A stretch of DNA of 60,490 nt, counting the filler, from Jimgerdemannia flammicorona (lineage: Eukaryota), in NCBI GenBank assembly GCA_003990765.1. It is 2 parts of 2 records of this genome, joined end to end, with 100 filler letters (N's around TTAATTAATTAA, not from the genome) between each part and the next. Parts side by side here need not be neighbours in the genome. Positions count along the whole stretch, not along the records: positions 1 to 30,236 come from RBNJ01000452.1; 1 more part is not named here. One strand, 5' to 3'. The notes beneath the pieces are model-generated. The model searched no databases. It was given only the letters and a program-made list of their open reading frames with translations, and was not told the origin of the DNA. The position numbers and the translations under genes were made by a program. Numbering within the stretch: position 1 is the first letter of the stretch; each line of letters starts with the position of its first letter. Shown here in pieces: positions 3,801-27,086 of this stretch.

Positions 3801-5996
3801 TGAGCAACCACTTTTTTAGAAGAGACGTCGAAAAATGCAAAATGCGTAGGGCCGATCATCATCCGCAATTCCCTAACCTCCTGCTCTTTCAGCATGTTCA
3901 TGGAGACCCGGCTCACCAGGACGAAATTGGGATCGATGGGCATGTACATTCTTTTCACCACCTTAAAGTCTGGGCGAATGGAGATGATCTTCACAGAGAA
4001 CTTGTTCCACCACTCGTTTTTCCGATGGGTGGTAGTGGTGTACAGGAGAACACGGCCAGAGAGTTGGTGTCCAGTAGAGCGTGCTTGAAGTTCTGTTTAG
4101 ACAAGAAATGCAACTTGCCAAAATAGGGGATTTCATTGGGTGAGGAGCATGAGGAGTAGTCACCTGAGGAGTAGTTGTCATCGTAGTAGTAGACAGGCAT
4201 TGCGGAGGCATGATCACTGGTCGGTGAGACATTCAGGAAGAGAATAGGCTTAGACTTGGAGCTGGAGAATATGAGATATTCTGGGCTGCCAGGCGTGTAC
4301 TCTACAGTGACGTCTTTAGGTGACAGGCTCGGGGGGAATGAACTTGACAGGCTGGGAGAATACCAGGTGGACTTGAGGAGAGAGCAGCTCCCACACAGTG
4401 ACCATGCGTCGGTAGGGCTATATGTCATGGCATACTTGTAGTTGCATGATATCTTCATCACTTCAATTGGAGATTTATGAGGACTCTGAGACTCTGATGC
4501 ATAATCAATTTTTAGATCGCTTATAAACAAGTGAGCAATGATGGCCCTGAGTGGCAGAGATTGATGCCGATTCAGTGATATTGATGACTTTGTTGGAATT
4601 TTTTAAATTCATGTCCAGTGCTAAAAATGGTGATGTCGGAATATTTGAACTCATCCGAAAGAGTGTGATTGCCCAAGATATCATCTCTGACTTTTGTGGC
4701 TGTCAAAGGATCCCATAACGTTAGAGTGTATTTCGTGTTGCTGCCATCTATTGTCATCAGGAAAAAAATCACTATTGATCATAATGAACTTCGTACCAAC
4801 AACCTTCATATCATCTATATCTGAGCAGTTAGCTTCGCAAATGGAGATCCCAGTCTGTGTGGTGAAAATCTTCAATCCGTCAGTACCATAGAATGTGATG
4901 AGATTGTGGGATGCGTCATAGTCGTATTTGTCATTCATATTAAATGTGTAGCAAAATGTTTGCACCAAACTCCTGGTCCGGACATTCCACATTATCGTGT
5001 AGTCAGGACTACCATACCATTGAAAATGGTGCTACCCTAGCGGTTTCAACAGAGGTTTGCCATCGACCACAGGTTCTGAATGACCTTCGAAGGCCCTAAC
5101 ATTCAATTTTTTTTCTATCAAACGTATGTGTCAACGATTGCGATTTCATGTTCACCATAAAGAGGTGTTCGGAATCCAGAATCAGAAGAGTGTGGCCATC
5201 ATCCAGAATATGGACATGACCGACAATACTCCGCTGACGGGCGACATTATCCAGACGAGTATAACTGTTTTTTGTGTTGATGCGCAGGAAAATAACTTTA
5301 TGGTTGTCCGAAGTAAGGCTGGTATGATAATGGGTGAGAACGAGTTGGGCCATTGGTTGTTGGATGTGTTCGAAATGGCAAGGCTGAACTGGGCATGAGG
5401 GAACCCTAGTGATGAGCTATGAACTTCCTCGGATATACACTGGAATCTGTCGACTGTCAAGACACCACAATGAAAGAATTCTATCATCTCCACGAAGGAA
5501 GCCGCGTAGAGGCAATCCGGTGAACACTCATACAGTCCAATGGGAACCTGGTGTGGAAGGTGAAAAAGGCTGACGGTTTTTATGCCTGAACTTGGTGGTT
5601 TTTATTTTGAAGTCAGGACTTGACTGTACGAAGCGGATGGCAGGATACAAACTGTAGGGAAGACATCCTTTTCTCACAATCTCTGTTGATATAAAAAAGA
5701 AACAGTAAGAAGACAATTTTTCGGGATAGTGTATTGGATGGATATCATTGTCTTAGCACTCTACCTTTTCCTTCCCCATCATTCTTAATGATGAAGCGTG
5801 TCATGCCAAATCCAATCGTAATACTACCATCTGCTGTGATTGGGTCGTGGGCATACAACATGTTGTCGAACTTTAAAGACCCTATCAGCGGCTCTAAGCT
5901 CCACGTCACATTTTGCTTGAAATCTGTACTGGACCATATTTCGGTAACAAATCCTAGCCAAACGGCGCTTCAATAGGCGAAATGATCAGCAAGGGG
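825..5996 (-). pseudogene. Large TRP-like ion channel gene (N-terminal WD40-like region, C-terminal TM/pore/TRP-box region), multiply frameshifted
   Basis: A chain of overlapping minus-strand ORFs: WD-like segments (MWNVRTRSLVQTF, HVHILDDGHTLLILD), hydrophobic helices (1592-1915), a pore-like segment (NHFTPIWISAKSIFLVLTQDY) and a C-terminal 'AQLISEIEIFYMTP...FPKILL', resembling the TRP-like family expanded in Mucoromycota. A probable splice acceptor (ttctcatag) lies at ~5997; the 5' exons are not visible. Confidence 0.65.
2956..3026. repeat. 18-bp tandem repeat x4 (encodes EENDGH/EENDSH)
   Basis: Unit gaccRtcRttctcttcat, repeated four times inside the TRP-like gene. Confidence 0.9.
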
Positions 5997-6045
5997 CTAT
6001 GAGAATAAGAAATAAGATGGTATTGGATACTCAATTTGAACATCC

Positions 6046-7185
6046 CTACCTAATAAGAGGGAGAGTATCCTCCCAGACTTCAAACATGCTATCTGTATAT
6101 GGGTCACTGCTCACTATCTTCCCAGCCTCATCCAGATCCTTCTCTACATCCCCTCCTCCTGTTCCTGCCCAGGCACTTGCTTTCATGCCCCCAGACTCCT
6201 CAATGCCACCAGCATCCTTCTTCATCCTTTCTTCCAGACTCACTAACAACTCCCTCTGCCTCTTACACCCTTGAGACCACTCCCACAGTCTCTTGTCAAT
6301 GCAGACATACTTCTCATCCACAATCTCCAAATGTGTCAACTCCATATACTCCTTTCAAGCCTTTGCCCTCCACTCTACTATTTCACTCATCTCCTCCAAT
6401 ACCTCCAACAAATCCTCCTCCTCCTCCTCACTCTTCTTTACCCTTGTTACCTTATATACAAAAGCCCCCCACATCATTACTGATGGCCAATAATGAGTCT
6501 TCCCAGTAGTCTCCCTCTCTGTCAGCTGAAGCCAAACATCAATATCTCCTGTTCTGAATGAGGTCTCTTCTCAGACTTGAAAGCCAATATCAACCACCTC
6601 TCCATACTCCACCATGATCTCCTCTACTCTTCTTTTCATCTTTATAGCCATCATCATGAGCACTCTTTTTACCAGAAGCTGTATCACTCTGGGGTCTCAC
6701 CTCAAGCATCATGCCATTAGAACACACACCTCCCCAATAGTCAACTCTGTCTTCAGTACAGCTTTCAAAAGCTCAGCCTCTTTAAAGCCCACCTTCACTC
6801 CTTCTAAGTCCCTCAGAAACTTCACTGATACTGCTCTATCTATCTGCTTTGCAATCAGCCCCAAGACCATTTTTACTATCACTATCAAGCTCTAGAAGTA
6901 CAGCATAACTATGAACTCTGAGATCAACTTCTTAAGTAATAGTGCTACTACCAGATTCATTATACCATCAGCCAGATCACTAGGCCTCATACCTTCCTCA
7001 TAGCTCAGTCCACCATCAGTAGTCCAATCTAGATTTTTTTTCAGATTATCTGTCATACTCTTATCAGCAGTTACCCCCCCCAGCTATCACACCACCAGCT
7101 CCACTACTCTGGCCCCTCAGAAGGACTCTCTTTTGAAGCTATTGTCCTATAGTCTTTATCATCTCCTTATCTCTCCTCAGCCAAC
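6046..7185 (-). mobile_element. Decayed LINE ORF1 fragment
   Basis: ELTHLEIVDEKYVCIDKRLWEWSQGCKRQRELL matches ORF1 at 15122-17155 (DLTHLEVVGGRCIHMDKKQWEWVQRCKRQKELL). Contains stops. Confidence 0.85.
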
Positions 7186-7189
7186 CCTA

Positions 7190-8930
7190 AGGTAAAAAAG
7201 GGGGACTTGCTATCAGATTGGCATTTTGAGAAAGGTCCTAAAACAAACCAGATTTTATTGGTTATTTATTTTCACATAAATTTGCTAACTGAATATTTCA
7301 AGTATAGATTTTGGCCATTATGACAGACAATACCACAAATAACTCAACATTTTTCTATATTTTAGCAGCCAGCCTCAAACAGGAAAACATGGCCTTCAGT
7401 GCAGAAAGCTACCATGTACAATGCCAGGCTCACATACTAAACCTTACTGTTCAGAACTATCTTATATATGTAGACAAAACATCTGAGAGAGGAGGGGCCC
7501 TAAGTATAATTTCCAAGCTATGCAAACTGGTTGTATCAGTCTGATCATCCCCACAATGATGAGACAAATTTGCTGCACAGTATAGGGTGATTAGTTTAGC
7601 CCCAAAAGAGCTTATATTAGATGTCTGTATATGTTGAAACTCAACATTTGTAATGATCCAGCATATGCTGAAGTTTGCTGTGGTATGCATTCTTTTTTTC
7701 TTCAGTCAGCTGAAGTAACTTGTTTCAGATAATTGAAGATTTATTTTAAAAAAACAAAAAAAAAAAACAAAAAAAGCCAATAGATTCAATAGTGGCTACT
7801 AATAAGGAAATATGGGCTGAGGCTCTAGGTGAAAGCAAGTGAGACATACTTAGAAATGTTATCAGAGTTTTGGAAGTAAGTAGTAATTGCTCTGGCTCCA
7901 TACTCATTTTGTCTACCTCTATACTCATTTTGTCTACCTCTGTATAATATAACACCTCACTATATATAACTGCTAGTATTTTGATGATTATATGAAGGAT
8001 ATAGTCAAACAAATGACCCTGATAATAAGCTCTACAATATCAGTATACAACCTTCTGATTGACCAGCTAGAGGACAAGCTTGAGAATAGGCTAGAGGGTT
8101 GTGGTGATTTATGGTTAAGCCCAGATCAGAGAGATGCCATAGAAATTGCTCTAAGTAAGCTCAGAAAATACTACTCCCAAACAGATACTACTGTATACTC
8201 AATCAGTATAGATATATTGATATTGGCATGTGGCCATTGCCCCTTCCAAAATAGAGAAACTCCTACAAAAACTCACTCTCCTTTTTTTCAAACAGTGCTG
8301 GACCTATGCTTAAAGCTACAATACCATAAAGATCAGGGCTGAGAGCAGCACTTCATTAAGAGAACCAAGTAGGCTATAATTGAAGTGTACCAGAAAAACT
8401 ATGTACCACTACAAGGTTCTAGCTAAAGTCCAGATAAATATGCTAAAAGATCCCTCCTGTCCCACATTTACTTCAGCAGAAAGAGAAAGAGGGAGCTGTC
8501 AGTGGAAGAGCTGCTGTCAATAGATGAACTTACCATTTACCTTGCCAGCGACTATGTGATCCTGCTGGAGGGTGCAGAGGTGCTCAACTGATAGAAAGTG
8601 GGTTGTCAGGCAGGCATTGGGCCAATTTAACCCACCAATCTAACTACTGCTCTACTCACTAGGGTGTGTAGCTGCATCAAACAAAATTCTCCAGCCTATA
8701 TGGTATGGCTCAGAACTATCTGGCAATTCCTGCCTCCAGCACTCTTGTTGAGCAGATGTTCTCAGGTAGAATGAACCTTGTTGCCCCAAAGAGGTATGTG
8801 CTAAATACTGAGACAATCCAGGTATATATGTATCTGAAGTCTTGGTGGGGCTTAGGCCACTAAAATTTGGCAGGTCCTGGGGGTTTGCAGATAAGTTGGT
8901 TGGCCTTATGAAATAGTTAATATCTTTCAA
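7190..8930 (+). mobile_element. hAT-superfamily transposase relic (5'-truncated, apparently intron-containing)
   Basis: Motifs 'IMTDNTTNN' (catalytic D), 'CQAHILNL' (CxxH), 'ELILDVCIC*NST' (DVxTRWNST) and 'AIPASSTLVEQMFS' (hAT dimerisation region). Contains stops; CpG-depleted. Confidence 0.85.
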
Positions 8931-9019
8931 AAATAATAAAAAGGGAAAAAAAACCTGAGAACTTGGCCCAGAGTTTGTGGCCTAAGTGAGGCAGTGGTCA
9001 GTAGATTGGCAGTGGTGAT

Positions 9020-9505
9020 AGAGAGAGCATGTAATATTTGTAGCCCTCTGCTAGCAGCAAGGGGCAGTCTCAAGCTATCAGTGCCTGAGATGGTGGGTGG
9101 GTCAGTAGATAGGTCAGTGAGTGGGCATGAGATCAGCAGAGAGAGTATGCAAAATTTGTGGCCCTCTGCTGGCAGCAAGGAGCAGCCCTAAGCCACAAGT
9201 GTCTGGGTTGGGGGGGTTGGTGGGGGGGTAGAGGGGGGGGTAGGTAGAGGGAGTATGCAAAATTTGCAGCCCTCTACCAGCAGCAAGGGGCAGCCCCAAG
9301 CTGTCAGTATCTGAATCAGTAGGCAGGATCAGTTAGCAGGGTTGGTGGACATGGGGTCAGTGGAGGGAGCATGCAAAATTTGCAGCCCTCCGCTGGCAGC
9401 AAGGAGTAGCCCCAAGCTGCAAGTGTCCAGAATGAGTGGGGCAGGCAGAGGGAGTGTGTAAAATTTACAGTCCTTCACCAGTGATATAGGGGCAGCTCCA
9501 AGCCA
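9020..9505. repeat. Five dispersed ~50-bp GC-rich repeats, probable hAT subterminal repeats
   Basis: Motif gagYatgcaaaatttgcagccctcYgctggcagcaaggRgcagccccaagc at ~9024, 9143, 9251, 9367 and 9452, directly downstream of the transposase. Confidence 0.75.
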
Positions 9506-9526
9506 CCAAGAAGTCAGGGGCAGAGA

Positions 9527-9874
9527 GTGCTCCTGATAGTTGGAGGGTGCTTCTGATAGTCATGGGGTGCTTTTAGTAGTCAGAGAGCATTTTCAGTGGT
9601 CAGAGGGTACTTCTGGCAGTCAAAGCCCATCATAGATTTAGACCCCATTACCAGTTTGGGTCTCACAGACACTCTGGCCCTGCACTGCAGTACTATACTG
9701 AGTAGGGCCAAGGGGCCAGTAGAGCCCTACATAATGGCTAAGCTAGTACTACAGAAGAAGTGCTTGGCCCAACCCCCTATATAAGACTGCCCAACCTATA
9801 CAAAATAACTGCCTAACCCTTATAAAAGATTGCCTAACCCTCATAAAAGATTGCCTAACTCTTACAAAAACTGC
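9527..9874. repeat. Two short minisatellites (~20 bp x5 at 9527-9620; ~21 bp x4-5 at 9782-9874)
   Basis: Units gtgcttctgatagtcagagg and aaaagattgcctaacccttat, both imperfect. Confidence 0.7.
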
Positions 9875-11136
9875 TCCACCTATTGGTCCCAGGCCTTGAT
9901 AAGTCTATCATCTATTGTGAGTATGACAACTATTGTATCCAAGCTCTTCTCAAAGGCAACAGTATTATGGTAGTTGTATGGTTAGAAGAGGACAGCCATG
10001 TTAGCTATAAACGGAACCCTGAAGTCATAGGTGAGATCATACCAGACTCCACCACTATTCTTCCAGATTGGGCCCTTCCTTTCTAGAATGTAAAATATTA
10101 CCAGAGTGACATTGTTGTCTGTGTGTGTGGATAGAGAAATGTTGTACCTGATGTATCCTGATATGATATGAGCATATAGTTGGGTGAACCCTTGGCCCAG
10201 GACCTCATATTGCTAGACTATACTGGTGGATGCCTGCTCTTGGTCCAGCCCCAGGAGCCTTGGCTTGAAACCCTACCAAAATGGATGGTAACTGGTCAGT
10301 CCCTTTTGTGTGCAAGAAGGCAGAAAACCCCTGGACTACAAAAACCCCTGGGCTGCAGCACCCCAAAAAAGTGAAGCTCCTTACCTCATATGGCACACTA
10401 AATTGTACCAAAAATGTACATATAGCTGTGCCAAGATCACCACCAAGCTGACCTGCTATATGTTCTATCAATCTGCTCAAAGAACCCCAGATCATAGCTA
10501 CCATCACCATATAGACTGTATTGTATTCATGTGCAGTTTGCTCTTTAATAGTACTTCTAAAGTTCTGGTAGAGGTACAGAATCTTGTGCATCTCTGGAAT
10601 TGTATCAAAAAAGAGTATATCAGCAAAGAGTGTGATTTATCTGGAGAGGAGTAAAAAAAAAGGGAGATGAGTACAGGGGATTTCAGAACTCTGGAACCCA
10701 CTTTTACCAGTATTGCAGTATATCTGATTCTCATCCAAACCCCCCCTCTTTGCTTTTTTCACACCCTCTTTTCTGTCACCTGGTATTTGATGCAATTCTT
10801 ATAAATCTCATTGATGTGGTGGTAAAGCTTGTCACCATAGAGGTTCTTTATCACCATCACAACTACCTCTCTGTATTTGTTAATAATAATATAGTTCTCT
10901 TCACCATTGGTTACTCCTGCTGGCCAATGGACCCCTTGGTCAAGAACAATTAACTCTGATTTAAATGTAGACCCCCAAGCCTTGATGACAATGCTAGTAC
11001 TGCTCATGCTAAACATCTTGCCCCTGGATTTCTCTATTTTATCAGACACTGGATGTGGTTGAACTTGGGTAACTTTGAACTCTCCTTTTCAATAGAACTG
11101 AGCCCTAATCTGAGGGACTGAGATAAGTATATGAAT

Positions 11137-11288
11137 GGGTTGCATACAGACAGGTTGTATGCAGATAGGTTGTATGAGATAGGTTGCATACAGATAGGTT
11201 ACATGTAGATGGGTTGCATGTGGACAGGTTGTATATGGGTGAGTTGTGTGTAGATGGATTGCATGCAGACAGATTGTATGTGGGTGTG
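11137..11288. repeat. 15-bp minisatellite (~10 copies) within a putative intron
   Basis: Unit ggttgYatRcagata, repeated imperfectly. Confidence 0.85.
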
Positions 11289-11609
11289 GGTATTTTTTAG
11301 AGGGAGACCATATAAAAAATAAAATTAAATAAAACATAAAGATGGGTATTTTAGAAAAAGAGCATAAGTGAGTGAGTGAGTGAGCTGCATACTGGTGAGT
11401 TGTATGCCAACAAGTTATATGAGTTGTACAAGATTGCTCACAAAGGCTTGCTTCTGTTCCTTTTGAGACCTCTACCACATGATACATTGACTCAACAGCT
11501 CAGCCACTAAAGGCATGTTTTTTTTTTTTTTTTTTTTTTTTATAGTCACTTGGACTCTCTTCCTTTATTAATACCTATCTATCCCATATAATTACAATGA
11601 TCCCACCCC

Positions 11610-14600
11610 CTATCCAATCCCCCTAGGGGGGCTCCCCCCCCCTACTCCTTCTCTGTAAAAGACTACTTTGTCGAACACTATTCCCACCCTCCCACCACTC
11701 TGCTCACAGATCTTCATCACCAAACCACGATGTCATCCTCTCTGAGGACCCCAACCCACCCACCATCCGGTCAGTAGATCCCCCACCAGCTCCTCCTATC
11801 TTAACACCTTCTCATGTAGTCCCAACCACTGCCCCTCCTCAAATACAAAAAGCCAATGGCCCGTCAGTCCCACCTATACTACTAACATCCATCCTATAGT
11901 GAGCCAACTATCCCCCATCCCACCTACAAGCCGAGATCTTAAGTCCTCCCAGTGACCCCCCTCCCCTACCCGCCAATGCCCCACATCCAGTCTATCCCCT
12001 ATCTCAGCCCAAAATTCCCCCAAGACCTCACACTCTCTCAGCCAATGTTCCAGCATCTGTACATGACCCCCAGCCTGCCCAACATTGTAACACTCCTTAC
12101 AGTCAAATTGTCCACCCTCTACTAAATGCCCTGAGTGGAAATTCAGCATGACATTCCTTTGCAACATTCGCCACCATACCATCCAGAACTTGGGAGGAAG
12201 CCACCTCTGTACCTCAGCACTCCAAGACCAGATGCCTGCCCAGTCCCACTTCTCTCCAATTCCAACTGCCTGCCAGCTACTTGGCCAAAGGTCCTGGCCA
12301 AGCCCCTGCTGATACTCCACTCTCTCCCCAATATTGAATGCAGCCAGTGGAGTACCCCTCAGGAGTAGTCTATCCCAATGCCACATATTAGGCCCCCATG
12401 CCACCTCCCCCTCGTTATCTTGCCATCGCAGGCCAATTTGGTGTGCTCCATTGGCCACTCCCCACCAAAAGCCCTTGAACCGCAGCCTCCGAATGCCATT
12501 CAGCCCCACTAAAGAGAGCAGATCTCCGGAGGACCCTTGGGGGGATGTTCACATCTCCCATACCTTCTGCAGCAGAGGCACCCAACCTCTGCCCTGCAAT
12601 TCCACAGCTCTCTTCAACCACCAGACTCTCAAGCAGTACAGCCTCTTAGAGAAATCCACCAGGCCAAGACCTCCCCTGACTACTGGTCTCGCAAGAGTAT
12701 CCCAACTGACCTGGGACCTCCTCCCCACCTAAATCCAATCCCTAGCCACCTTCGTCAGCTTCTTCACCACCCACGCTGGGAAGTTAAGGTAATATGCCAC
12801 ATACTACAGCTTTGGGAACCAATATACATTCAGGATCGACACCCACCCTGCTAGAGAGATATGGCGGCCTCCCCATCCTCAAAGGGCCTCCCCCCAACTA
12901 TTCACCCTGCCCTCCCACCACACTCATGGCAAGACAGAACCATATACAGAGAGGAAGATGCCCAGATACCACACCACCTTACCAGTAGGGACAATTGTTC
13001 CAATGATGTCCCCACCCACTAGCCCATTCCCTAGCACCATTGTCTCACACTTATGCCAGTTGAGTTTTGCTCCCAAGTGAGCCTCATACCATTCCACAGT
13101 CTCCTGAAGTGCCTCTACATCTGCCACAGACCCAAGTCCAACCACCATATCATCAGCAAAGGCCCCCACCTTCCACACTATACTATATATAGAGAGCCCT
13201 GCTACCTTCTGACGAATCCTATCCATCAATGACTCCAGTGACAGGGCATAGAGAATCAAGGATAGAGGGTCCCCCTGAGGTACTCCTCTTCCCAAGAGAA
13301 ATGCCCTCCCATAGTGACCATTACATATCAGAGCTGCCTGACTACTTTCCAGCAGACTCAATATAGAGGCCCTAAATGTTGGGGGAACACCAATTCAGTC
13401 CAACACCTTTCCCAGCCACACCCACCATATATGGTCATAGGCCTTCTCCTGGTCTAGAAAGACCAACCTTCCATCCAGTCCATAGGCCCGGGCCCCTTCA
13501 ATGACACCATGAACCCATGCAGTCCCATCTCTTATTAGTCTGCCCCCAACAAAGCCCCTCTGCTCTTCCCCTAGCACCTGTTGGGCAACCTTCTGCAGCC
13601 TTGCAACAATCATCTTAGTCACCATCTTCCTGTCTATATCCAGAAGCATGATCAGCCTCCAGTTCTTTCAGTCTTCCCTCCTTCCCTTGTCTTTGTACAG
13701 TAAGGCCACCAGCCTCAGATCCTGCTCTCCAACTCACTCATCACTCTGAAGGACATGGTCACAAAGATCAGCCATCTCGCCCAATACTCTGGAGATATTT
13801 ATCATCTTCTTCCAGAAGTCCCAAGGCAATTCATCCTCCCCTGGCACCGTCTCAAGCTTAGTTGCTGCCAGGACACTCTGGATCTCCTCCCCCTGCACTG
13901 GTAAGATCAAGTCCCTCAGTCCAGCAACCTGTGGTGGCCCCCACTCATCTAGTGTATTTACAATCTCTGCCTCATCTGCACCCCCTTCTCCCTCACTCTA
14001 CAAACCCTGCCATCTCTCCTTCAAGACCCCCAGGATTTGTTGCATGCCATGAATCATGTCCCCATCAGCATACAGGACCCCATCCCACCAATGACACACT
14101 CTTCTAGCTTTGAGAAGTCTCGATAAGTACCTAGTAGGCTGCTCACCCTCCTCAAGCCCCTGCCACCACAGCCTAGCAGCCATGCCCCGCATATGGGTCT
14201 CCTCCTCTTCCCTCAGTACCTGTTGTAGTTCCACTATCTCCAATTTCGCCCTCTCTATCCTTCAATCCTCCACCCCTACAACAGTGAGCAAATCTGCCCA
14301 ATCTATTTGTAGTCTCCTCAGCCTGCTGGAAGCACACCTCATGTGCCTCCTTCTCTGCCTCCCAGCCTCTCTACCAGCCTCTCCCCAATAAACCCTTGCA
14401 GCCCTCCAGTGATCAGACCATGGGCACCACTCTACTTCCAATGCCTTTCAAACATCCAAACCCCAGCACTCCACCATCAGAATCCAGTCAATCCTTATGC
14501 CTAGGCCATTCACTCAATGCGTATAAACCCTGGTATCACCCCACCTCATTCTGCCCATATCCCCCAAGGAGCTCAACGTCTCTACCTCCTCCCATGTATC

Positions 14601-15089
14601 CAGACCTCCACTTCTACCCCCGGCACTCCTCCCTCCATCAGTTCTGTCCAGGCGCTGATCCCGAACCATATTAAAGTCCCCACTGAGAACATCGACCCCT
14701 TCCTCTAAGAGAATACCCTCCTCTAGCAATCCCCTAATCCATGCAATCCTCTCACCCCTAGCTGTAGGGCAGTAGCAAGAGCCCACCTTCACTGATTCCC
14801 ACCCTGGCTGATGCCAATCTCCCCAGACCAAGCAATTGCCCCAGCTCCTGATTCCCCCCAAGTCTCCTCTACCCTTCCTCACCAGAATTGCTATCTTTCC
14901 AAACCAAGCAGCAGCCCCCCCCCACTCCCTAGTCCACTCTGCCTGATTGTCCTCATCCTCATATTGAACATCCTGCAATAAAAAGAGATCAGCCTCCAAT
15001 CCCTTGAGCCAAGTAAAAATGTTCCTATGCTGCCCAGATCCCCTTAGCCCATTCACATTCAAGGAAAAAATGTTGGTTGTACTGTTCAT
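11610..15089 (-). pseudogene. LINE ORF2 (APE endonuclease, reverse transcriptase, C-terminal zinc finger), interrupted by stops
   Basis: NVNGL, GDFN and SDH (APE); DQEKAYD, GVPQGDPLS and AFADD (RT); CKEC...EHWLREC. Confidence 0.9.
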
Positions 15090-15121
15090 AAAGAATAATG
15101 ATATATATCAGAGCCTATCCT

Positions 15122-17155
15122 CTATAAGTCAGCATCCTGCCTCTCCTGCACTAAGTCCAAGTTAAGCTCAGCAGCCAGTTCCCTCTCCCCAGCTTTCCGT
15201 GCCTCCAACTCTCCCAGAAGTTCTACCATTGCCCCATCCTCACACTCCTCAAAATCCTCACAATACTCCAGACAGGCCGCCTGCCAGAGCTGCAGACTCC
15301 AACGCTCTGCCCAACAGTAGTCCGCCCACTCAGTGGTGACCACCCCCAGCTCTGCCTTCCTCACCTCGTCAACCTCATATCCCTCCTCCTCCAGCAAAAT
15401 TGCCAGAATCTCTACCTTCAGTGCCTCCACCATTCCATCCCCATGCAGGATCCTTGCCCAATGCTCCTCAGGCATTGCCCACAGGTCTATCTCCCCTAAT
15501 GCTTCTGCTGCGAGGTTATCCATCATCTTGCGTACCCACAACAAGTTCCCCACCTCCTTCCCTCCTGGAGTCCCTAGTCGCCCTGCATCCAACATTGTGG
15601 TGTCAGCTCCTACACTAGCAGCCTCATCCCACTCCTCCTCAGGGACATCCACCAGCTCATCCTTGCCAACTGCCACCACCTGACCCCCTTGAGCCACATC
15701 AGGGACCCCAAAGCACATCTGCTGGGCCCCCTGCATCCGTGTATCCTCCATCCTCCCTCTCTTCCCCACTGGGCCCCTCCTGATAAGTGGAGGGGGGGTG
15801 GCATCCAACTCCGGCTCCCACACTTCAAAGGTACTATCAGCAAATGGGTCCTTGTCCAGCCCCTTCCCAGCTCCTGCCTCCTTCACTTCTACCTCCTCTC
15901 CTTCTTTATCAGCCCAGACACTGGCCTCAGCGCCTCCAGACTCCTCAGCTTCACCTGACTTCTTCTTCCCCCCACCTGTCATACTTGCCAACAGCTCCTT
16001 CTGCCTCTTGCATCTCTGGACCCACTCCCACTGCTTCTTATCCATATGGATACACCTCCCGCCCACAACCTCCAGATGTGTCAAGTCCTCATACAGTTTC
16101 CAGGCCTTCGCCCTCCTCTCTACAGTACCACCCAACTCCTCCAGTGCCTCCAACAAGTCCTCCTCCTCCTCTTCGCTCCTCTTCACCCTTGATACCTTGC
16201 AGATGACGGCCCCCCACATCAGCACCAAGGGCCAGTCACTTATCTTCCCTGTGGCCTCCTTTCCTGCCAACCGAATCCTGACATCGACGTTGCCTGTCCT
16301 GATAGTTGTTCCCTCCCACAACTGAAATCCAATGTCCACCATGTCTCCATACTCTACTATCACCTCCTCCACCCTCCTCCTAGTCTCCTTCTTAGTCACC
16401 ATGGGCACCCCCCTCACCAGAAGCTGCACCACCCTGGGGTCCCACCTCAAGCACCTTATCATGGGGACCACCACCTCCCCAACCACCACTCCTGTCTTCA
16501 TGGCCTCGTCCAGTAGGCCTGCCTCCTCAAAGCCCACCTCAACCCCCTCCATGCCCTTCAAGAACTTCACTGAGGCTGCACCAGCCACCTGCCTCGAGAT
16601 AAGCCCCAGGACCATCCTCGCTATCACTGCCAAGCCCCGGAAGCACAAGATAGCCGCAAACTCTGAGATTGACTTCTTGAGCAATGGGGCCACCGCCAGT
16701 CCCATTATACCATCAGCCAGGTCTCTCTTCTGCATCGGGAGCCCCTGCCCCCCCTGGTCATCAGCTGTCACATCTCTTTTTTTTTCCTGATTCACTGTCA
16801 CACTACCATCAGCAGTCCCGCCACTACCCCCAGCCACTACTCCACTCCCTCCACCTCTCACCAGCGAAGGCCCAGCTCCCCCAGCATCACCAACCTTCTG
16901 CTTCCCCTTTCCTTCTGCCTGTCCACTGCGGGCACCCCTCAGCCAACCCCCAGCCTTAAGTGCATCTACAAAGCTCCCTCCCTGCTGCCCTCCAGCCCTC
17001 CCACCAGTGCCTCCTCCACCCCCCGAGCTGCCCAGTCCACTCGATCCACTAAAAGACCCCATCCCTAGTCCATACCCTCTCCCGACATACTGCCAGTTGA
17101 AGGCCCCAGGTCCACCCGACCTAGGATGTGCATCAGCTCGCTTGCTGGTTGATAT
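15122..17155 (-). CDS. LINE ORF1 (Gly-rich N-terminus, probable RRM-like core, acidic C-terminus); stop-free, but the start codon appears mutated ATG>ATA
   Basis: Open frame of ~677 codons upstream of ORF2. Alignment with copy 2 (MVTNRQSEGHTGQGGPG at 53974) places the start at ATA 17155-17153 rather than at 17263. Confidence 0.8.
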   Translation of the reverse strand: MSTSKRADAHPRSGGPGAFNWQYVGRGYGLGMGSFSGSSGLGSSGGGGGTGGRAGGQQGGSFVDALKAGGWLRGARSGQAEGKGKQKVGDAGGAGPSLVRGGGSGVVAGGSGGTADGSVTVNQEKKRDVTADDQGGQGLPMQKRDLADGIMGLAVAPLLKKSISEFAAILCFRGLAVIARMVLGLISRQVAGAASVKFLKGMEGVEVGFEEAGLLDEAMKTGVVVGEVVVPMIRCLRWDPRVVQLLVRGVPMVTKKETRRRVEEVIVEYGDMVDIGFQLWEGTTIRTGNVDVRIRLAGKEATGKISDWPLVLMWGAVICKVSRVKRSEEEEEDLLEALEELGGTVERRAKAWKLYEDLTHLEVVGGRCIHMDKKQWEWVQRCKRQKELLASMTGGGKKKSGEAEESGGAEASVWADKEGEEVEVKEAGAGKGLDKDPFADSTFEVWEPELDATPPPLIRRGPVGKRGRMEDTRMQGAQQMCFGVPDVAQGGQVVAVGKDELVDVPEEEWDEAASVGADTTMLDAGRLGTPGGKEVGNLLWVRKMMDNLAAEALGEIDLWAMPEEHWARILHGDGMVEALKVEILAILLEEEGYEVDEVRKAELGVVTTEWADYCWAERWSLQLWQAACLEYCEDFEECEDGAMVELLGELEARKAGERELAAELNLDLVQERQDADL

Positions 17156-17904
17156 CTCCTTAATATCTTTCTCCAATAAATGATTTGAAAGTGTGTTGTA
17201 AAGTGTGTATAATGTGAATTGTAGTGGAGAGAGATGACTAAAGGTATGTCCTGCAACATCCACCAGCCTTTCTTTATCTTGACCAGATGTTGTGAATAAA
17301 GTCAGCAGATCTTGCTATAGAGCTGTGGATCCTAAGAAAAGTACAAGATGAATTAGGTCATACTTGAGAAATTTAAATAAACACAAGTAAATAAGTAGCA
17401 GCCAAGTGAGCAATCTACATCTACTATCAGCTGCTCCAAAAAGGCTACTACATATATAGCTGTGAGGTCTGTGAATTCCGAGATCTAAAGGACCACTGTG
17501 AGTTGTTGTCAGAATTCTCTCTCATCCTCACCATTACCACTGCCATCACCACCACTATTGCCCCTTTGGCTCTCAATGAGCAGCTTGTGTGCTGCCCACA
17601 TGAGAAAGAATCTAACATTGTCAGTAGAGAGTACATTTCCACCTTGAATACTCCCTCTTTTGATGATCATTGCAGAGTGAAAAATGAGTAGACTGGACCA
17701 ATATATGAATTAAGGGCTGCTGTTTTGTTTGCTTATAATGTGGCAGAAAATAATAAAGAAAAAGAACAAAGAAAAAGAACAAAGAAAAGAATAAAAGAAG
17801 AGAGGGAATAAAAGAAAAGAATAATGTCACCAAAGTGCAATAGGGAAAAAAAAAACAAGAGTAAAATAAACAAAAGAAAGGGTGATGTCATTAAAGATTT
17901 CAAT

Positions 17905-18081
17905 TTGGATGGATCAATCTGGATCAATCCAGATCAATCTGGATGGATTAATCTGGATGGATCAATCTAGATGAATCAATCCAGATTAGATCATGAGACT
18001 AATCTGAGTTAATTCAAATCCATTATATGATGAATCTGAATTGAATCTCATCTGGATCAACTCCATCCATTCAGAGTACTA
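17905..18081. mobile_element. Decayed hAT-type terminus with (ggatcaatcY)n subterminal repeats
   Basis: Ends in gagtacta, whose reverse complement tagtactc matches the TIR tagtgctcc of the MITE at 34521-34672. The internal repeats look like CpG-decayed versions of that MITE's atccggat/atccga repeats. Confidence 0.6.
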
Positions 18082-18089
18082 CTTGGAAT

Positions 18090-19885
18090 ACTTTTGTCTT
18101 CTCTTTTTTCTTTAGCTGACTGCTCCCTTTCTCTCCTTCAAGTTTTTACCTTATTCTTGGGTCTTTGCTTTGTTTTTCCTACAACTTCCTCACAATTCTC
18201 CTCCACCAATCCAGCTCATCTTATATGTTTTCATTGTGCTCTTGACCTTATCATCTTCTTTGAAGATTATGATGAGATACCCTCTTACTATTATATCTCT
18301 AAATTGGGTCCCCTCTCCCAATGTCTCTTTATACTGTGTATTCCTTGATATAGCTTGCTTGCTGTCTATTCCTGGATGCACTTGCTCTTGCTTGGTTTCA
18401 GACTGTACTATATATATTATACTTAAATTGGTCAAGCAATTGCCTTTGTACTTGCTTATAGTCACTGATAAGAATTAAGATTTTGTACTTATTCCTAAGT
18501 TGCTCTACCTTGATGATCTTTCTGCTCTCCTTCAAGCCATGGCTTATGAGCCTAGTGCTCTTGGATTGGATGAGGTTCTAACTCTCCTTTGGGTTTCTCT
18601 GACTTATACCAGATCACTTTCAGATTCTCCTTTTGCAAACCCCATTTTTAACTTCTTTCAGAACTCTTTGTCCTTGTCAGATATTTGTCTTCCAGTTTTC
18701 TATACTCTTCCTAAAGTTCATAAGCCCACATTGGCTTAACATCCCATTATAGCTACTTTTAGCTCTCCTACTACTAAGATTTTGAAGTAGTTGTCCCATT
18801 TCTTCCTCTTCTGGATAGCTCTTCTACAATACCATCTTGGATCTAAGTATACAATTCTTCATGACACTCAGGAGCTCACTCTTCTCTGCTCCACTATTGT
18901 GCCTGTTTATCATTTTTCCCATCTGGCCTCTGGTGACTTCTCCTCCTTCTATACTGCTATTCATTTTGATGAGATTGATAATTGTCTTTGCTTCCTGGGT
19001 TTTATTGTTTTTCCTTTAGATTCTCCAGTTTTGTTGGCTTCTATTGTTGAGCTTATGCTCCTCATCTGTGGCTCCAACTATTTTGAGTCAGCCCTTGGCT
19101 CCTTTTATCAGACTTCTGGTATTGCTATAAGAATGAATTGTACCCCCACCCTTATCAACCTCATTGGCCTGGCCCATGAACTTTGTGTAATATATAATCC
19201 TTCTTTATCTCTTTCTATTGAATTCTGGGCTGGGAATATCTTCTTCCACTAATACATTGATAACTTTATTATTCTTGCTATTTCTGGTATTGATATTTTG
19301 AGTGTGTTCTGTGGCATCTACTCTCCCCATTATTCTATTACTTGGGTATATGATATAACTAGTACTTTCTTTTTGGATCTTTTTATTTCTCTTTCTCTCT
19401 TCTGAACTATTGTTTATTCTCATTTTTCCCATTCTCAACAGTTCTCTGACTTCCATTCCAATTACTCTTATCACACTCTTCTTAAATATATTTGTAGTGA
19501 GGTTCATCATCTTATATTATGCTACTCCCATTATTCTGATTGGATATCTGCTGTCTGGGTTCTTAGCAACTTCATGGTCTATCATCATATCTATCCAATT
19601 TCTATTGTTTATGATCTGCTTGCTTCTATTGAATAGTCTGTTATTTGCTCTTCTCTTCTCTCTCCTCTTTACCCCTCCTCCCTTTCCTCCCTCTCTCCTT
19701 ACCCACTCCATACCCTCTCTTCATTCCCACCCCCAATTCTTATCATACCATTTGATTATGCTCACTGGGTTATGCAATGTCCTGATACTATCCTGTATTC
19801 TTCTCTTTCATGTCATAGACTTTTATCTCTTTCCTGATACCCTCTGATTACTTGTTCACATCTTCCTTCTATTTCTTCTCTAATC
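18090..19885 (+). mobile_element. Penelope-like retroelement relic (RT), no GIY-YIG domain seen
   Basis: PLE-type motifs in order: TDKN, FYTLPKVHKP..*HPII, SGDFSSFYTAI, YQTSGIA..NCTPTLINL, *YIDNF (RYIDD) and a thumb-like region (~19450-19510). Confidence 0.8.
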
Positions 19886-21073
19886 CATTACTCTCATTTT
19901 GCATTTTTGTCATCTTCTGATACCTCTGGTTTTTCTGAAGAGGATTAAAAAACATCCTTGCCCCCTCCTGGGTCTCATACTCACTCTGAGGTCTCAGCCT
20001 TCACTCTGCTCTCCTCTACTGCCTTCAGTCCCTTACTTTGCTTGAACTTGCTGTGGCTCACTCTGTTTTGGCCTCACCTCTTGCTCATGCTCACCCCTCT
20101 GGGGTCTGCAGATGTTTTTTAATCTCAATTTGGATTTGTTTTGTTTGTATTTGTATGTGATTTTTATCCTATAACTGGGATTGGCTCCCTCTTTATCTCT
20201 GCTTATCTCTGATAGTCATGTGGTTCCTAATTTAGTTTGCCCCAATTTGTGGTGTATCTTCTCTTTTAGAACATTATATTTTGTATATAAAGACTGTATT
20301 TTTACATGACAATAAATAGCTGATGCAAATTTGATTATATTCTTTGTTTGTCTCTCTTATATATACTCTTCTACATATCTTCTGTTTGCTTTAATACTGG
20401 CTCTAGGTTCACTCTCATGGCTCCCACTGGGCCCTCTTCTTTTACTGCACCTAACTCTACTAGACTATTCACTCTGACTATAGATACCTCTGACATTGCT
20501 ATTGGGGTAGTACTTAGCTAAGAAGATCACCCAGTAGTCTATCTTTCTCAAAAACTCAAGCCAGCTGAGACCCAGTATACTACCCATGAGAAAAAACTTC
20601 TGGCCATTGTCACTGCACTCCAGAAATGGTACTATTTTCTCCTAGAACAAACATTTATAGTCTATACTAATTACTATGCTCTGCAGTATATTCATATATA
20701 GCTCATACTGATCCACAGACAAGTCTGCTGAATAGAAATCATTGCCAACTTTGATATGGAAATTAAATATATCCCAGACAAAACCAACTATATAGCTGAT
20801 GGTTTCTCTAAATATATAGAAGACAAACTTGTCTTCATGGTTGAGATAATTGGAGATCTCACTTAAATGATCAAAGATAACTATCAATAAGATAGCTCCT
20901 TGATGAAATTCCTTCAATTCTGCCTAGACTCAGAGGCCAAGGTCTCAGAACCCATGAGGCAAATATCTAAGAGATTCACTTATCATGATAGACTTATCTA
21001 TAGAGATCATAATAGAGTAGTTGTACTTAACAATAATACTCTGTAGCTCAAGATCATACAAGAACTCCATAAT

Positions 21074-21477
21074 TGTAACAGTTCTAGTTTCTAAATAAGG
21101 AAGTGACTAGTTCTGGTGGTTCTAAGTAGCTCAAAGAGATACTTAAGGGTTCAAGTATTCTTAAAGGATTTCTGAGAGAAAATATTCTGAGGCTTTATTC
21201 ATGAGAACAAAGGGAATATTTATATAAGATCTGAAAGAAGGATCCAGAAGGATCTGAGAAATCAAAGGAAAATGCCAAGAGGAAAGTTCTCAACAAGGAT
21301 GAAAAATGATGATAAATAAAGTTCTACAAGTTTCCAGAACATTCAGTGACTAGCTAAATAAGTACTAGTAAATACTCAGCACCAAGAAAGGATTTCTAAG
21401 TATTTGGAAAGTACTGGAAGGTTGTAGAATATTGAGGAAAGATAAAGAAAAGGAATAAACTATGCTAAAATGTTACA
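21074..21477 (-). repeat. 3' LTR of the nested gypsy element
   Basis: TGTAACA...TGTTACA; direct repeat of 26683-27086. Confidence 0.95.
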
Positions 21478-24400
21478 TCTCCCCCTCCTTAAGAATCAAC
21501 ATTCTTGTTAAATTCTCAAAGCTATACATAATAAACAATAAGACTAAAAGAAACTTCAAATAAAATATATTAGCTCATTGGCAGGGACTGGCCATCCTTG
21601 TATAAGGTGAGGGCCAAAGTATCATCTTGATCAGATGAGAACTAATTCAAACCTTATTGGTTGCAAGATTTATAGAGTTCTCCTATATCTTTTGTTTCTG
21701 ATACTATATCCTTTAGAGTGCCCCAATGCTTATGTGCCTGATCAGTACAGTATGTCATCTACTATTCAAGAGAAGAACCTCATGGGCAGTCAATGAGTTC
21801 CTTTTTGCTCAAACTCTTAGATGAGGTCTTGAGAGTTCTTGAGATTGGCAGCAGGTTCCCAGGTGATATCATATTCAGAGTAACTCATCCACTTGACTAG
21901 ATATTCTGTGTGATAGTACTAGACTCATTTGTCTAAGATTTTCTTGACTTCATACTTGATGTGGTCTTCAACTATCATTGATACTGATAGTGTTGGAATT
22001 TGGCCAGGATATGAAGGTGACTGGTTCTAGGCCTTGAGTTGTGACATATGGAATACTGGGTGTATATGTATAGTTGTTGGCAAGTTGAGGCAGTAAGACC
22101 AGGTGGAGACTTGCTCAGTGATCTCAAAGAGTCCAAGGTACTTGGACTGAAATTTGGCTGACTAGTGGTTGATTTGAGATTAAGCCTTGATGTTGTTGAC
22201 TTTGAGTCATCAATGTTGTATATGACATCTCACCACTTCTTATCTACATACTTAGCTTGATATTACTGAGCCTTTTGCAGGTTTGTAGTAGTGATTTTGA
22301 GAAGGGAATCCATTTTGTTGATAAGGTTCTGGGCTGTGGGGACTTGTGTGTGACTGGATTGCTAGAATGAGACTAGGCTTGTAGGAGTCTTGGGGTTTTG
22401 ACTGTAAAGTAGCTGAAATGGGGAAAGGCCAGTTGATGATTAGATGGCATTATTGTAGGCAAACTCAGCATAGGTCAGATAGTGGTCACAATTGTCTTAC
22501 TCATAAGATACATAGTTTCTGAGCATTTGTTCAAGTGTTTTGTTCATTCACTCAGTCTGTCCATCAGTTTGAGGGTGGAAGACAGTAGACATAGCAATTT
22601 GGATTCCAAGGGTCTTGAAGAGTGCTTGCCAGAAGTGGCTTATAAACTTGGGGTTGTGGTTGCTGATAATTACTCGAGGAAGTCCATAATAGTGGAAGAC
22701 AGTCTTGAAGAAGATTCTTGTAATTTCTGGAGCAGTAGCATTAGTTGTGGTTGGCTCAGCAATTGTAATCTTAGTGAGACAGTCCTCAAATACAACAATA
22801 GCATCATAGCCTGTTTTGGTTCGTGAAAGTTGTACAATGAAGTCCATTGTGACTTATTCAAACTTCTTAGTTGGAATTGGCAAGAGTTATAGAAGACCAG
22901 TAGATACTTGATTGCTTGACTTGTTTCTTTAGTAAAAATCACAGCTTTAGACATACTCCTTGATTTTCTTGAGCATGTTTGGCCAGTAGTAGTCTCATTG
23001 GATATTCTTGATAATCTTCTCCATTCCAAGGTGACTAGCTAGTGGGGAGTTATAATGTTCATGAAGAATCTTATACCATAGTTCAGGGTTGGCAGGAATA
23101 TATACTTTGTCTTGATGGTACATAAGGTTGTCCTTGATGGTGTACTTTTCCTTAAATTTCTTAGTATTCCTTTGTAGAACCAGAGAGTCTTGTTCATATG
23201 CCTTCTTGATCTGATTGAGTAATTCTAGTGCCATGGTGACTTGTAAAATTGCAGCAAGGTCAGGTTCTTTTTGAAAGTGCATCTGGTACAACTAGAGTTT
23301 TGCCAGGCTTATAGATGATGTTTGGGGTAAAGGTCTGAAGTAGTTAACTCTACTTGGCTTGTTGGCAAGAAAGGGTTAGTTGAGTGTTGATGTACTGAAG
23401 AGACCTGTGATTAGTAATTACATCAAACTCAACTCCTTCTAGGTAGTATTGCCAAGTCTTGAGGGCATGCATAATTGCCAGGAGTTCCTTTTCATGAGTA
23501 GCCAGCTTTTGTTCTTCTGGGGACAATTTTCTTGACTCAAAGGCAATAGGTCAGTGTTCTTGATCATCATTTTGAGAAATGACTGCACCAATGGCAAAGT
23601 TAGATGTATCTATAGTGACCATGAACTTCAAGTTTGGGTCCATATTTCTAAGAACAGATGCATGGGTCAGGCAGTTCTTGAGTTCTTGGAAAGCTTATTG
23701 ACAGAAAGCATCCCAGATATAGGGGACATAGAGGTCAGAGTTGGGTTCTTTTTGCAGGAGGTTTGTCAAAGATTCTGCAATGCTAGAGAAGTTCTTGACA
23801 AATCGATGGTAGTATTCAGCCAGACCAAGGAAGGACCTGAGTTCAGTGAAGTTTGCTGGTACAGACCACTGTTCAATGGCTTGTATTTTCCTTGGGTCTA
23901 CTTGAATTCCTTTGGCTGATATAATGTGTCCAAGGTATTCAACTTGATCTTTGAAAAACTCACATTTCTTGAGCTTTGCATAGAGCTTGTTCTCATAGAG
24001 GATCTTGAGGACTTGTTCAATGTACTTGAGGTATTCTTCTTCAGTACTACTAAAGATCAGGATGTCATCAATATATACAAGTATAAAGATATAGAGCTGA
24101 TTCTTGAAGACAGTTTGCATGAGATCTTAAAAGATTGCTGGTACATTGATAAGACCAAAGGCTATGACTAGAAATTTGTAGAGTCTGAAGAGTGTCATGA
24201 AGGCAGTCTTGGGTATGTCTTCTGGCTTGATTCGAATTTGGTGATACCCAGAGATGAGATCAATCTTGGTGAAGTACTTTGCATTTTTAAGAGCATCAAA
24301 GATTTGATTTTTGAGCAGTAGCAGATAATGGTTCTTGACTATGATCTTGTTGAGTGCTCAGTTGTCTATGTACATTCACCGAATATTATCCTTTTTCTTG

Positions 24401-25174
24401 ACAAATAGGACTGGGGAGCCAAAGGGTGACTTGCTTGGCTAAATGACTCCTTGCTCAATAAGTTCATTGAGTTCCTTCTTGACTGCTTCAATTTTGAGTG
24501 GAGATATGTAGTACATTTTCTTCTTAGGTATAGCTATATCAGATACCAACTTGATTTCATAGTCATGGTCTCTTGAAGGTGGTAGACCAGGTAGTTTGTC
24601 TGGGAAGACATCCTTGTACTTGTTCAGCAGTAACTTGATACTTTCACTAATTGATAGCTTCTTGTCTTCTTTCTTTAGTCGGATCAGTGCTATGAAGACA
24701 CAGATAGCTTTCTTGAGGGCCTTCTTGAACTGAATTGCTAAAAGGGTAGCAATTGGGGTTCTTGTCTGAGTCTTGTCTGGCTTGATGGTAATGTTAGTTC
24801 CATTCTGAATCAGGGTAACTTCATTCTTGGTCCAATCAATCTGAGGGTTGTGTCATATAAGCCAGAGTTTGCCTAGGATCAGGTCATGGTCTCCTAGTGG
24901 TGCTACCTTGAAATCTAAATGTTCCCGTACTTCTGGATCTTGAGAGAGAGTTTAGCAGCAATTGAGTCAATTGGTAAGGTGGTGCCATCTGTAGTGACAA
25001 CTCCACCATTCTTACCAGCTGGTTTGGTGAGAATCTTGAGCTTGTTGATGAGGTTCTTGTTGATGAAGTTACCAATAGCTCCACTGTCTATAAGAACATC
25101 TAGTTCTTGTCCCTTGACTAGACCTTTGAAAATGAGCATTTAATTGGCTTGGTTCTTAGTTATGCTTGCAACTT

Positions 25175-25590
25175 TATCAGTGCTGCCAAAGTCTTTCTGA
25201 TCTCACTTAATTGAAGACAGCTTGGTGACTTCTTTGATGACTGGTAGGGTGGCTTGCTCCAGAATGAGCTATGCAATTCTGTCACCTTCATTGACAGTAT
25301 ATGGTTGATTCTTGTGATTGACTAGCAGGACTTGCATTTCACCTCAGAAGTCAGGGTCAATGACTCCAACACTAACATCCAATAAGTGCTTGAAACTGAG
25401 GCTAGATCTTGGTGCAATTCTTACATAATGTTTCTTGGGGATTTTGACTGAAAAGCCAGTTAGAATGAGCCTTCTTTCATGTGCAGAAATAGTGATTTGT
25501 TATACTGCTTGAAGGTCCAAACCAATGGCTCCTTCTGACTATACTTATGGGATCTGGACCTTGGGGTTGACTTATATGAAATTGAGTACA
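25175..25590 (-). pseudogene. dUTPase domain between gag and protease
   Basis: All five trimeric dUTPase motifs recognisable: AIGLDL, IAPRSSL, GVIDPDF*GE, GDRIA*L and *DQKDFGST. Confidence 0.9.
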
Positions 25591-26682: not shown

Positions 26683-27086
26683 TATAACAGTTCTAGTTTC
26701 TAAATGAGGAAGCAACTAGTTCTGGTAGTTCTAAGTAGCTTGAAGAGATACTTAAGGATTCAAGTGTTCTCAAAGGATTTCTGAGAGAAAATATTCTGAG
26801 GCTTTATTCATGAGAACAAAGGGAATATTTATACAAGATCTGAAAGAAGGATCCAGAAGGATCTGAGAAATCAAAGGAAAATGCCAAGAGGAAAGTTCTT
26901 GACAAAGATGACAAATAATGATAAATAAAGTTCTACAAGTTTCCAGGACATTCAGTGACTAGCTAAATAAGTACTAGTGGATGCTCCGTACCAAGAAAGA
27001 ATTTCTAAGTGTTTGGAAAGTACTGGAAGGTTGTAGAATATCAAGGAAAGATAAAGAAAAGGAATAAACTATGCTAAAATATTATA
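26683..27086 (-). repeat. 5' LTR of the nested gypsy element
   Basis: TATAACA...TATTATA (mutated TG..CA termini), adjacent to the PBS. Confidence 0.95.

Follow-up and report, generated by a model that had tools for sequence, protein, structure and literature searches.

Introduction

Fungal genomes carry expanded TET/JBP genes, often on transposons, to which a role against silencing by methylation has been attributed. Those borne by fungal transposons have been sorted into three types (Kojima, 2025; PMC12730594), among which the PE type comprises dioxygenases of Agaricales and Pezizales transposons, has HxE as its hallmark and is highly divergent, with an HHpred E value of 1.4 to the algal TET homologue CMD1 and AlphaFold DB models that match CMD1, NgTET and CcTET (PMC12730594). 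In TET enzymes, the co-substrate 2-oxoglutarate (2OG) is bound by an Arg located about 9-16 residues past the distal His (PMC11040006, PMC7854593), which is R289 in NgTET1 and R1896 in TET2 (PMC7854593) and the essential R385, at His+9, in CcTet (PMC11040006). CMD1 uses vitamin C, 2OG being unusable as no basic residue stabilises its C5-carboxyl (PMC7854593). Here we analyse a stretch of 60,490 nucleotides, filler included, of the genome of Jimgerdemannia flammicorona (assembly GCA_003990765.1), hereafter the window, which holds on its minus strand the relic of a four-exon gene (9883-17259). As judged from sequence comparisons, the family to which this relic belongs most likely diverged deeply within the TET/JBP dioxygenases, which depend on 2OG and Fe(II) (2OGFeDO). 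Its intact members would be expected to fold as a double-stranded beta-helix, to bind Fe(II) through an H-x-D...H triad and to oxidise a methylated base in DNA.

A disrupted gene with intact relatives

The preliminary description of this DNA had read a TET/JBP-like gene relic from a broken N-x5-HTD...GG...His motif, with an offset of 52 between the two His, in a last exon on the minus strand, and had placed a phase-0 intron before that exon. As an HxD with a second His is weak evidence alone, the test was whether the reading frame has relatives. Positions 9883-11088 were read through, with X at the stops, and used as the query of a full HMMER search over 1,835,955,588 protein representatives, in which five relatives were found at E <= 1e-3. 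The last exon (exon 3) is matched by P0003 (136 amino acids, 71% identical, E 1.2e-52), by P0004 (134 amino acids, 43% identical, E 4e-21) and by P0007 (128 amino acids, E 5.6e-4), whereas P0005 (128 amino acids) is similar to exon 1 (E 2.9e-11 over query positions 20-125). P0006, a complete protein of 374 amino acids, is similar to exon 1 as well as to the last exon (E 2.7e-7). The contigs that encode these five are short, of metagenome or Logan origin, and the proteins are labelled no further than "hypothetical protein".

A scan of metagenomes gave two loci, both of the P0007 type (hereafter the L001 type). The first, L001, is an intact four-exon gene of 376 codons with 0 stops and short GT..AG introns, and the second, L002, is 99% identical to it over 2.7 kb (23 transitions, 5 transversions) and has two in-frame stops. 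Word-indexed protein searches with the last exon, exon 2 and profile A1 returned nothing beyond P0006 itself, no relatives were found in the prokaryote genome contigs and viral contigs scanned, phage genomes searched with P0006 by tblastn yielded mere noise (E 7-9), and the ESM Atlas had no usable match to the 76-residue open piece. Literature searches and motif searches of Table S1 of Kojima (2025; PMC12730594) met no description of the family, although one may still exist. The family is very rare and unannotated, with intact proteins of about 375 residues; it is invisible to Pfam, and no more than five clusters of it occur in the set of 1.84 billion protein representatives.

When P0006 and L001 were used as guides, the window gene could be modelled as four exons with 361 codons, a length divisible by three, five in-frame stops, zero frameshifts and GT/AG at all six splice sites, and its introns agree with those of L001 in position and phase. 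The first part of exon 0 (17237-17259) has a candidate ATG (17259-17257) and about 7-8 codons, after which it is cut by a long interspersed nuclear element (LINE) described below. The rest of this exon (11442-11518) includes the downstream copy of the target-site duplication (TSD) of the LINE (11518-11506), continues over 11505-11442 and ends at a donor GT (11441-11440); once rejoined across the insertion, exon 0 can be aligned to exon 0 of L001 and to the N-terminal end of P0006. Intron 0 (11110-11441; phase 0, GT/AG) has its counterpart at the same position and phase in L001, and a tandem repeat of 15/30-bp units lies inside it (11130-11280). Exon 1 (10698-11109) encodes the N-terminal half of the domain, contains two TGA stops, ends in phase 1 and also matches P0006. 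A donor directly after ..KYQ in this exon was considered and rejected, as the frame reads on through the TGA at 10761 and is still homologous to P0005, P0006 and L001. Exon 2 (10385-10593), between the phase-1 intron 1 (10594-10697) and the phase-0 intron 2 (10273-10384), is stop-free and matches residues 168-227 of P0006 by BLASTP (E 1e-4); the exon 2 of L001 also matches P0006 (E 3e-10).

The intron before the last exon is in phase 0, as had been proposed, and is bounded by a donor GT (10384-10383) and an acceptor AG (10274-10273). Therefore, the last exon already begins before the open piece, at 10272, and this catalytic-core exon (9883-10272) runs to a natural TAG stop at 9882-9880. Read on the minus strand, 9883-10212 gives ..N-ISLST-HTD-NNVTLVIFYILERKGPIWKNSGGVWYDLTYDFRVPFIANMAVLF-stop-PYNYHNTVAFEKSLDT.., and the stretch with the catalytic motif is ..STHTDNNVTLVIFYILERKGPIWKNSGGVWYDLTYDFRVPFIANMAVLF, then TAA, then PYNYHNTVAFEKSLDT.., so that the broken motif was confirmed with HTD at 10125-10117, the distal His codon at 9969-9967 and the offset of 52. 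The five in-frame stops are TAG 11474-11472, TGA 11091-11089, TGA 10761-10759, TAG 10215-10213 and TAA 9984-9982, the last of them between HTD and the distal His. Both stops of exon 3 stand at W and Q positions of P0003 (TGG to TAG and CAA to TAA, respectively), and one of the other three stops stands at a Trp position of P0006. Just beyond the natural stop codon, a tandem repeat with a 21-bp unit (x4.8) occupies 9774-9874.

These data make it certain that the feature in the window is a true gene relic, that is, a pseudogene. An H-x-D and a His 50 residues on are short patterns, and in a repeat-rich window they and the open pieces around them might be taken for a product of chance in non-coding repeat DNA. 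The probability of this is negligible, as it is refuted by the E value of 1.2e-52 to an independent protein, by homologues of all four exons and by the conserved positions and phases of the introns. A search for sequencing runs containing the gene listed none, of RNA or otherwise, and Rfam gave 0 matches across the window.

Conserved residues and similarity to Tet_JBP

When the relatives were aligned (numbering of P0006), H283, D285 and H335 were invariant in the five of five lineages that cover them, with the His-to-His offset of 52, and R298 (Asp+13), G300, G307, Y315 and F329 were kept in six of six. The family thus keeps the H-x-D, an Arg 13 residues past the Asp, the GG turn and the distal His-Gly-Thr/Ser. 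The preliminary description had named a lack of conservation of HxD/H among genomic copies as a refutation of its proposal; in the lineages compared here, the triad typical of TET/JBP metal sites (H-x-D...H with an offset of about 50) is conserved. Within the L001 type (L001, L002 and proteins P0007-P0021), 28 variants at least 90% identical were detected across metagenomes, and several of the 13 aligned have N for D, Y for H, or C, H or Q for R at conserved sites, with N replacing the Asp in two of the 13 and Y the distal His in one. This variation has the look either of repeated copies that decay by transitions or of differences within populations.

The relation to Tet_JBP was assayed by profile-profile comparison. 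A reference alignment (A8) was seeded from gp2 of Mycobacterium phage Cooper, which matches PF12851 at E 4e-8, and comprises 38 aligned sequences out of 80 viral-contig loci kept, with L048 excluded for an internal stop. The identity of this reference was verified, as 34 of its 38 members match PF12851 (best E 5.5e-13) and no other family, and a PDB search with its profile detects NgTet1 (E 0.0013). With hhalign, alignment A5 of the relic's family scored 44.6 against A8 (P 1.9e-5, probability 77.7%, 179 columns) and A6 scored 45.1 (P 1.6e-5), while lower values were reached by A4 (31.1, P 1.8e-3) and by the spliced gene models (36.0, P 4.4e-4). Four motifs were in register, with P-x-H-x-D on P-Y-H-R-D, (K/E)R-x-G on R-R-G, GG on GG and H-G-T on H-G-V.

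None of the shuffled alignments reached the observed scores. For A5, block shuffles had a mean of 15.1 (standard deviation 2.4, maximum 21.0; 0 of 60), column shuffles also gave 0 of 60 and the reversed alignment scored 15.3; for the spliced models the result was 0 of 40, which makes 0 of 160 with those of A5. For A4, both types of shuffle gave 0 of 60, but the reversed alignment scored 26.1. Two control alignments built in the same way as A8 gave scores of 9.1-13.8 (P 0.4-0.96) for 39 cyanophage sequences of 2OG-FeII_Oxy_3 and of 15.5-17.2 (P 0.16-0.29) for 37 AlkB sequences; on the same scale, Tet_JBP itself scores 24.3 against AlkB and 16.6 against Oxy_3. The similarity to the verified Tet_JBP alignment is thus specific against the other 2OG families.

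Comparison with described TET/JBP groups

Besides the motifs P-x-H-x-D, (K/R)R-x-G, GG and HG(V/T), the phage Tet_JBP proteins of the Cooper gp2 group (PF12851) share with the relic's family an upstream helical region and an N-terminal strand, both in register. They differ in having a Y-R-x-S Arg past the distal His (invariant R236 in A8) and in matching PF12851, neither of which applies to the relic's family.

When the PE sequences listed in Table S1 of Kojima (2025; PMC12730594) were compared by eye, the same series of motifs was found in the same order as in the relic's family. In this comparison the PE strand ending ..V..RD corresponds to ..VLVVWHD, SAGSRS to SAGYTVS, RMD..G to LPGLDGG, and the TT.R past the metal motif to (A/C)(K/E)R; further on, GG.FF..(D/E)YGIR(I/V)...N..V.W.P...HGTSL corresponds to GG.FYN..YGFGV...N..V.F.P...HGT..L and GLSFVTSSRL to GLSLTTDERL. 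Both groups are alike also in being missed by, or barely linked to, the standard TET profiles. In contrast, the hallmark HxE of the PE type is replaced by HxD in all five lineages of the relic's family, and PE genes lie within identified transposons, whereas for the relic no carrier was found in the window. Of the groups compared, the PE type would appear to be the closest by eye.

The PU type of rust-fungus transposons, which include hAT7 carriers (PMC12730594), also deserves consideration, as a hAT relic adjoins the window gene and the order of elements is similar by eye. Nevertheless, the PU sequences have G(W/F)R and (T/S)R.G.S.Q, both absent from the relic's family, and no hAT termini were found. 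When 12 short family motifs of 5-6 residues were searched in Table S1, 11 had no match and the twelfth matched at an unrelated position in a PU row, so that none of them occurs in a PE row; membership of the PU type was rejected, as no motifs in common emerged from this search of the table.

The missing Arg and the strength of the assignment

The TET/JBP reading is the best supported, since the metal ligands are conserved and the profile-profile match, though moderate, is specific. Several results weigh against it. The preliminary description had looked to HMMER comparisons with Tet_JBP (PF12851) and the 2OG-FeII families for support, and none came: the window exons, P0003-P0007 and the L001 exons matched 0 Pfam families at E <= 10, in a search whose filters remove most matches above an E of about 0.1. 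Sequence searches of PHROGs and the PDB with family members and profiles, again up to E 10, gave nothing relevant. AlphaFold2 models were unusable, with a mean predicted local distance difference test value (pLDDT) of 36.7 for P0006 (8-row alignment) and 37.6 for P0003 (15 rows); accordingly, the Foldseek search of the P0006 model, which had no match at E <= 1e-3, returned rows that are meaningless at a pLDDT of about 37. The hhalign result varies with the alignment and the options used, from P 1.6e-5 to 0.026 and from 2% to 79% in probability. A 7-sequence Tet_JBP reference gave P 0.003-0.013, the option "-M first" lowered the A5 and A6 scores to about 21 (P 0.02-0.03), and the best values lean on N-terminal columns to which P0006 alone contributes. 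Furthermore, the resemblance to the PE type was judged by eye.

A further point is the absence of the canonical 2OG-binding Arg. The preliminary description had failed to see this residue about 10 positions past the distal His in the window, and the relatives extend that observation, as all five lineages, the window copy included, lack an Arg from +9 to +16. Up to +20, the window copy alone has a basic residue, a Lys at +7, whereas at +21 an Arg occurs in every lineage but that of L001 (four of five). The missing Arg, the lack of any match to hidden Markov models and the lack of a confident fold weaken the assignment. The proposal of a TET/JBP-like relic stands as regards the relic itself, on account of its homologues and of L001, and is helped by the moderate profile similarity, but finds no backing in Pfam or in an Arg at the canonical place.

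A rival reading is that of a real family unrelated to TET/JBP, with another cupin or beta-sandwich fold or from another 2OG lineage, in which H-x-D...H would be convergent or have another role. In favour of this are the lack of matches to any 2OG family model, the lack of a confident fold, the absent Arg and the fall of the hhalign probability to 2-15% under some alignment settings. Nonetheless, we consider it unlikely, because the Tet_JBP similarity exceeds all 160 shuffles and both control 2OG families with four motifs in register, and because those neighbours in the ESM Atlas that have a family assigned all fall in one family or clan. For P0006, the nearest Atlas cluster is basidiomycete (score 0.96), with PF20515 (2OG-FeII_Oxy_6) on 15% of its members, and a cluster bearing Tet_JBP ranks 11 (score 0.91); as recognition amounted to 2142, short of the mark of 2300, a further point on the negative side, these scores are weak evidence and serve as a lead only.

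If the enzymes are active, their co-substrate binding must differ from that of TET2, NgTET1 and CcTET, as the canonical Arg is missing. The intact members might even be TET/JBP derivatives that are not 2OG-dependent oxidases, and either use another co-substrate, as CMD1 does, or have lost catalysis and act by binding. With no basic residue at the canonical position in any lineage, the family resembles CMD1, which cannot use 2OG for want of such a residue (PMC7854593). Both have HxD...H with an offset of 52 (His345, Asp347 and His397 in CMD1, a TET-fold enzyme) and lack a working basic residue for the C5-carboxyl of 2OG, although CMD1 keeps in its sequence R410, which points away from the site (PMC7854593), and the likeness is one of motif description only. 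On the other side, PU-type fungal TETs vary at the Arg position too, where by eye a number of Table S1 rows have K or H (PMC12730594). Also, the metal triad and the invariant Asp+13 Arg argue for catalysis and offer another possible carboxylate binder, and on balance loss of 2OG dependence seems improbable. A Lys at this Asp+13 place is what JmjC/FIH-type enzymes use to hold 2OG.

Within the TET/JBP reading, a more specific and much more tentative proposal, whose truth as a whole we hold doubtful, would be that of an undescribed TET/JBP-like clade, sister of the fungal PE type, that has kept HxD and lacks the canonical Arg, in which 2OG would be held by the Asp+13 Arg or replaced by another co-substrate as in CMD1. 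Its gene would be multi-copy and decaying by transitions in heavily CpG-methylated eukaryotic, probably fungal, genomes. Should the family prove to be a genuine branch of TET/JBP, these enzymes would span a wider range of sequences than known so far, and a natural variant without the canonical 2OG-binding Arg would be at hand to ask if co-substrates other than 2OG, like that of CMD1, occur more widely. For its part, the window copy is of value because it points to the family and because it illustrates the destruction of a presumed demethylase gene in DNA almost free of CpG.

Insertion of a LINE and loss of CpG

The insertion in exon 0 (11519-17236, minus strand) is a decayed LINE, that is, a non-long-terminal-repeat retrotransposon, of 5.7 kb, which interrupts the first coding exon about 8 codons past the candidate ATG. 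It has Exo_endo_phos endonuclease (14517-15107, E 5.4e-7) and RVT_1 reverse transcriptase (12927-13394, E 9.5e-12) domains on the minus strand, a 730-residue ORF1-like frame and a 3' poly-A tail that ends at 11519, and it is flanked by the TSD copies ACATACCTTTAGT (17249-17237) and ACATGCCTTTAGT (11518-11506), identical at 12 of 13 positions with one A/G difference. A LINE with a TSD that splits an exon had already been seen in the preliminary description, although its bounds of 11518-17249 took in one copy of the duplication. A second copy of this LINE family, with RVT_1 at 57875-58204, occupies 53900-60490 on the plus strand and is about 68% identical to the one in the gene, from which it differs by 854 transitions and 685 transversions.

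The gene contains a single CpG in 1631 bases, with an observed/expected (o/e) ratio of 0.01. The ratio is 0.02 in 17237-30000 and 0.19 and 0.07 in the LINE copies within the gene and outside it, respectively, compared to 0.41 in 1-9880 and 0.53 in 30400-53900, and TpG/CpA are in excess alongside the loss of CpG. This loss is consistent with long-standing CpG methylation followed by deamination, and the methylation-type decay of repeats claimed in the preliminary description was thus borne out in the gene, in 17237-30000 and in the LINEs (o/e 0.01-0.19). The distribution suggests that 9883-30000 is a sharply bounded, long-methylated block. The window copy is a dead nuclear gene, disabled by the LINE in its first coding exon and by five nonsense mutations in almost CpG-free DNA; whatever the activity of its intact relatives, it cannot make such a protein itself and has no function.

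Transposon neighbourhood

The gene lies among remains of transposons, with a hAT relic 1 kb off, the LINE within it and long-terminal-repeat (LTR) remains past 18.5 kb. The preliminary description had supposed a transposon-borne gene that travels with KDZ or Plavaka elements. A domain scan of 167 open reading frames (ORFs), made up of 46 of at least 100 amino acids over the whole window and 121 of 55-99 amino acids in 1-34 kb, detected no KDZ, Plavaka or other DDE transposase domain, save the decayed hAT. There was no second copy of the gene in the window, and a search for pairs of terminal inverted repeats (TIR) and TSD around the hAT, or around the hAT plus the gene, gave 0 candidates versus 2, 0 and 0 in shuffles. 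Inverted repeats were limited to poly-A/poly-T and weak pairs, none of them convincing, and the pattern of hAT7-like termini had 31 matches versus 24.2 expected, a count that is uninformative for this reason. Nowhere in the window was the gene placed between the termini of a transposase-encoding DNA transposon, and the supposed travel with KDZ or Plavaka was not substantiated.

The gene could still be the passenger of a DNA transposon, either the neighbouring hAT or an unrecognised element, so that the relic would be part of a dead transposon and not a host gene. Such carriage would fit the 28 near-identical metagenome variants of the L001 type, several of them damaged at conserved sites, and the two stops of L002. 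As against this, the metagenomic variants may be population variation and not copies, the flanks of L001 and L002 showed no transposase match, and the window offered neither a second copy nor a TIR and TSD pair, a convincing inverted repeat or, in the 167 ORFs scanned, a KDZ/Plavaka domain. Altogether we regard carriage by a transposon as a possibility to be kept in mind, on the unlikely side.

The hAT relic itself is a decayed transposase at 5900-8900 on the plus strand, opposite to that of the TET-like relic, with a Dimer_Tnp_hAT domain at 8672-8860 (E 5.8e-9) and hAT-like motifs upstream in the six-frame translation, and a distance of 1 kb separates its end from the 3' end of that gene. A periodic repeat of roughly 110 bp fills 9000-9450, between the hAT and the gene. 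The LTR-retrotransposon remains extend over 18500-29000 and include RT_RNaseH at 20522-20698 (plus) and 23353-23550 (minus), RVT_1 at 23698-24126 and 24130-24357 (minus), a protease at 24918-25139 (minus) and a chromodomain at 28070-28354 (plus). They are followed by two runs of N, of 44 each (30237-30280 and 30293-30336). In the region 49500-52400, a better-kept LTR element has reverse transcriptase, RNase H and dUTPase at 50090-52408 (minus). The longest unexplained ORF outside the LINEs is a frame of 445 amino acids at 38187-39521 (plus), with no Pfam match. The only ordinary cellular domain in the window is a full ubiquitin domain (E 1.1e-27) in an open frame at 41265-41732 (minus).

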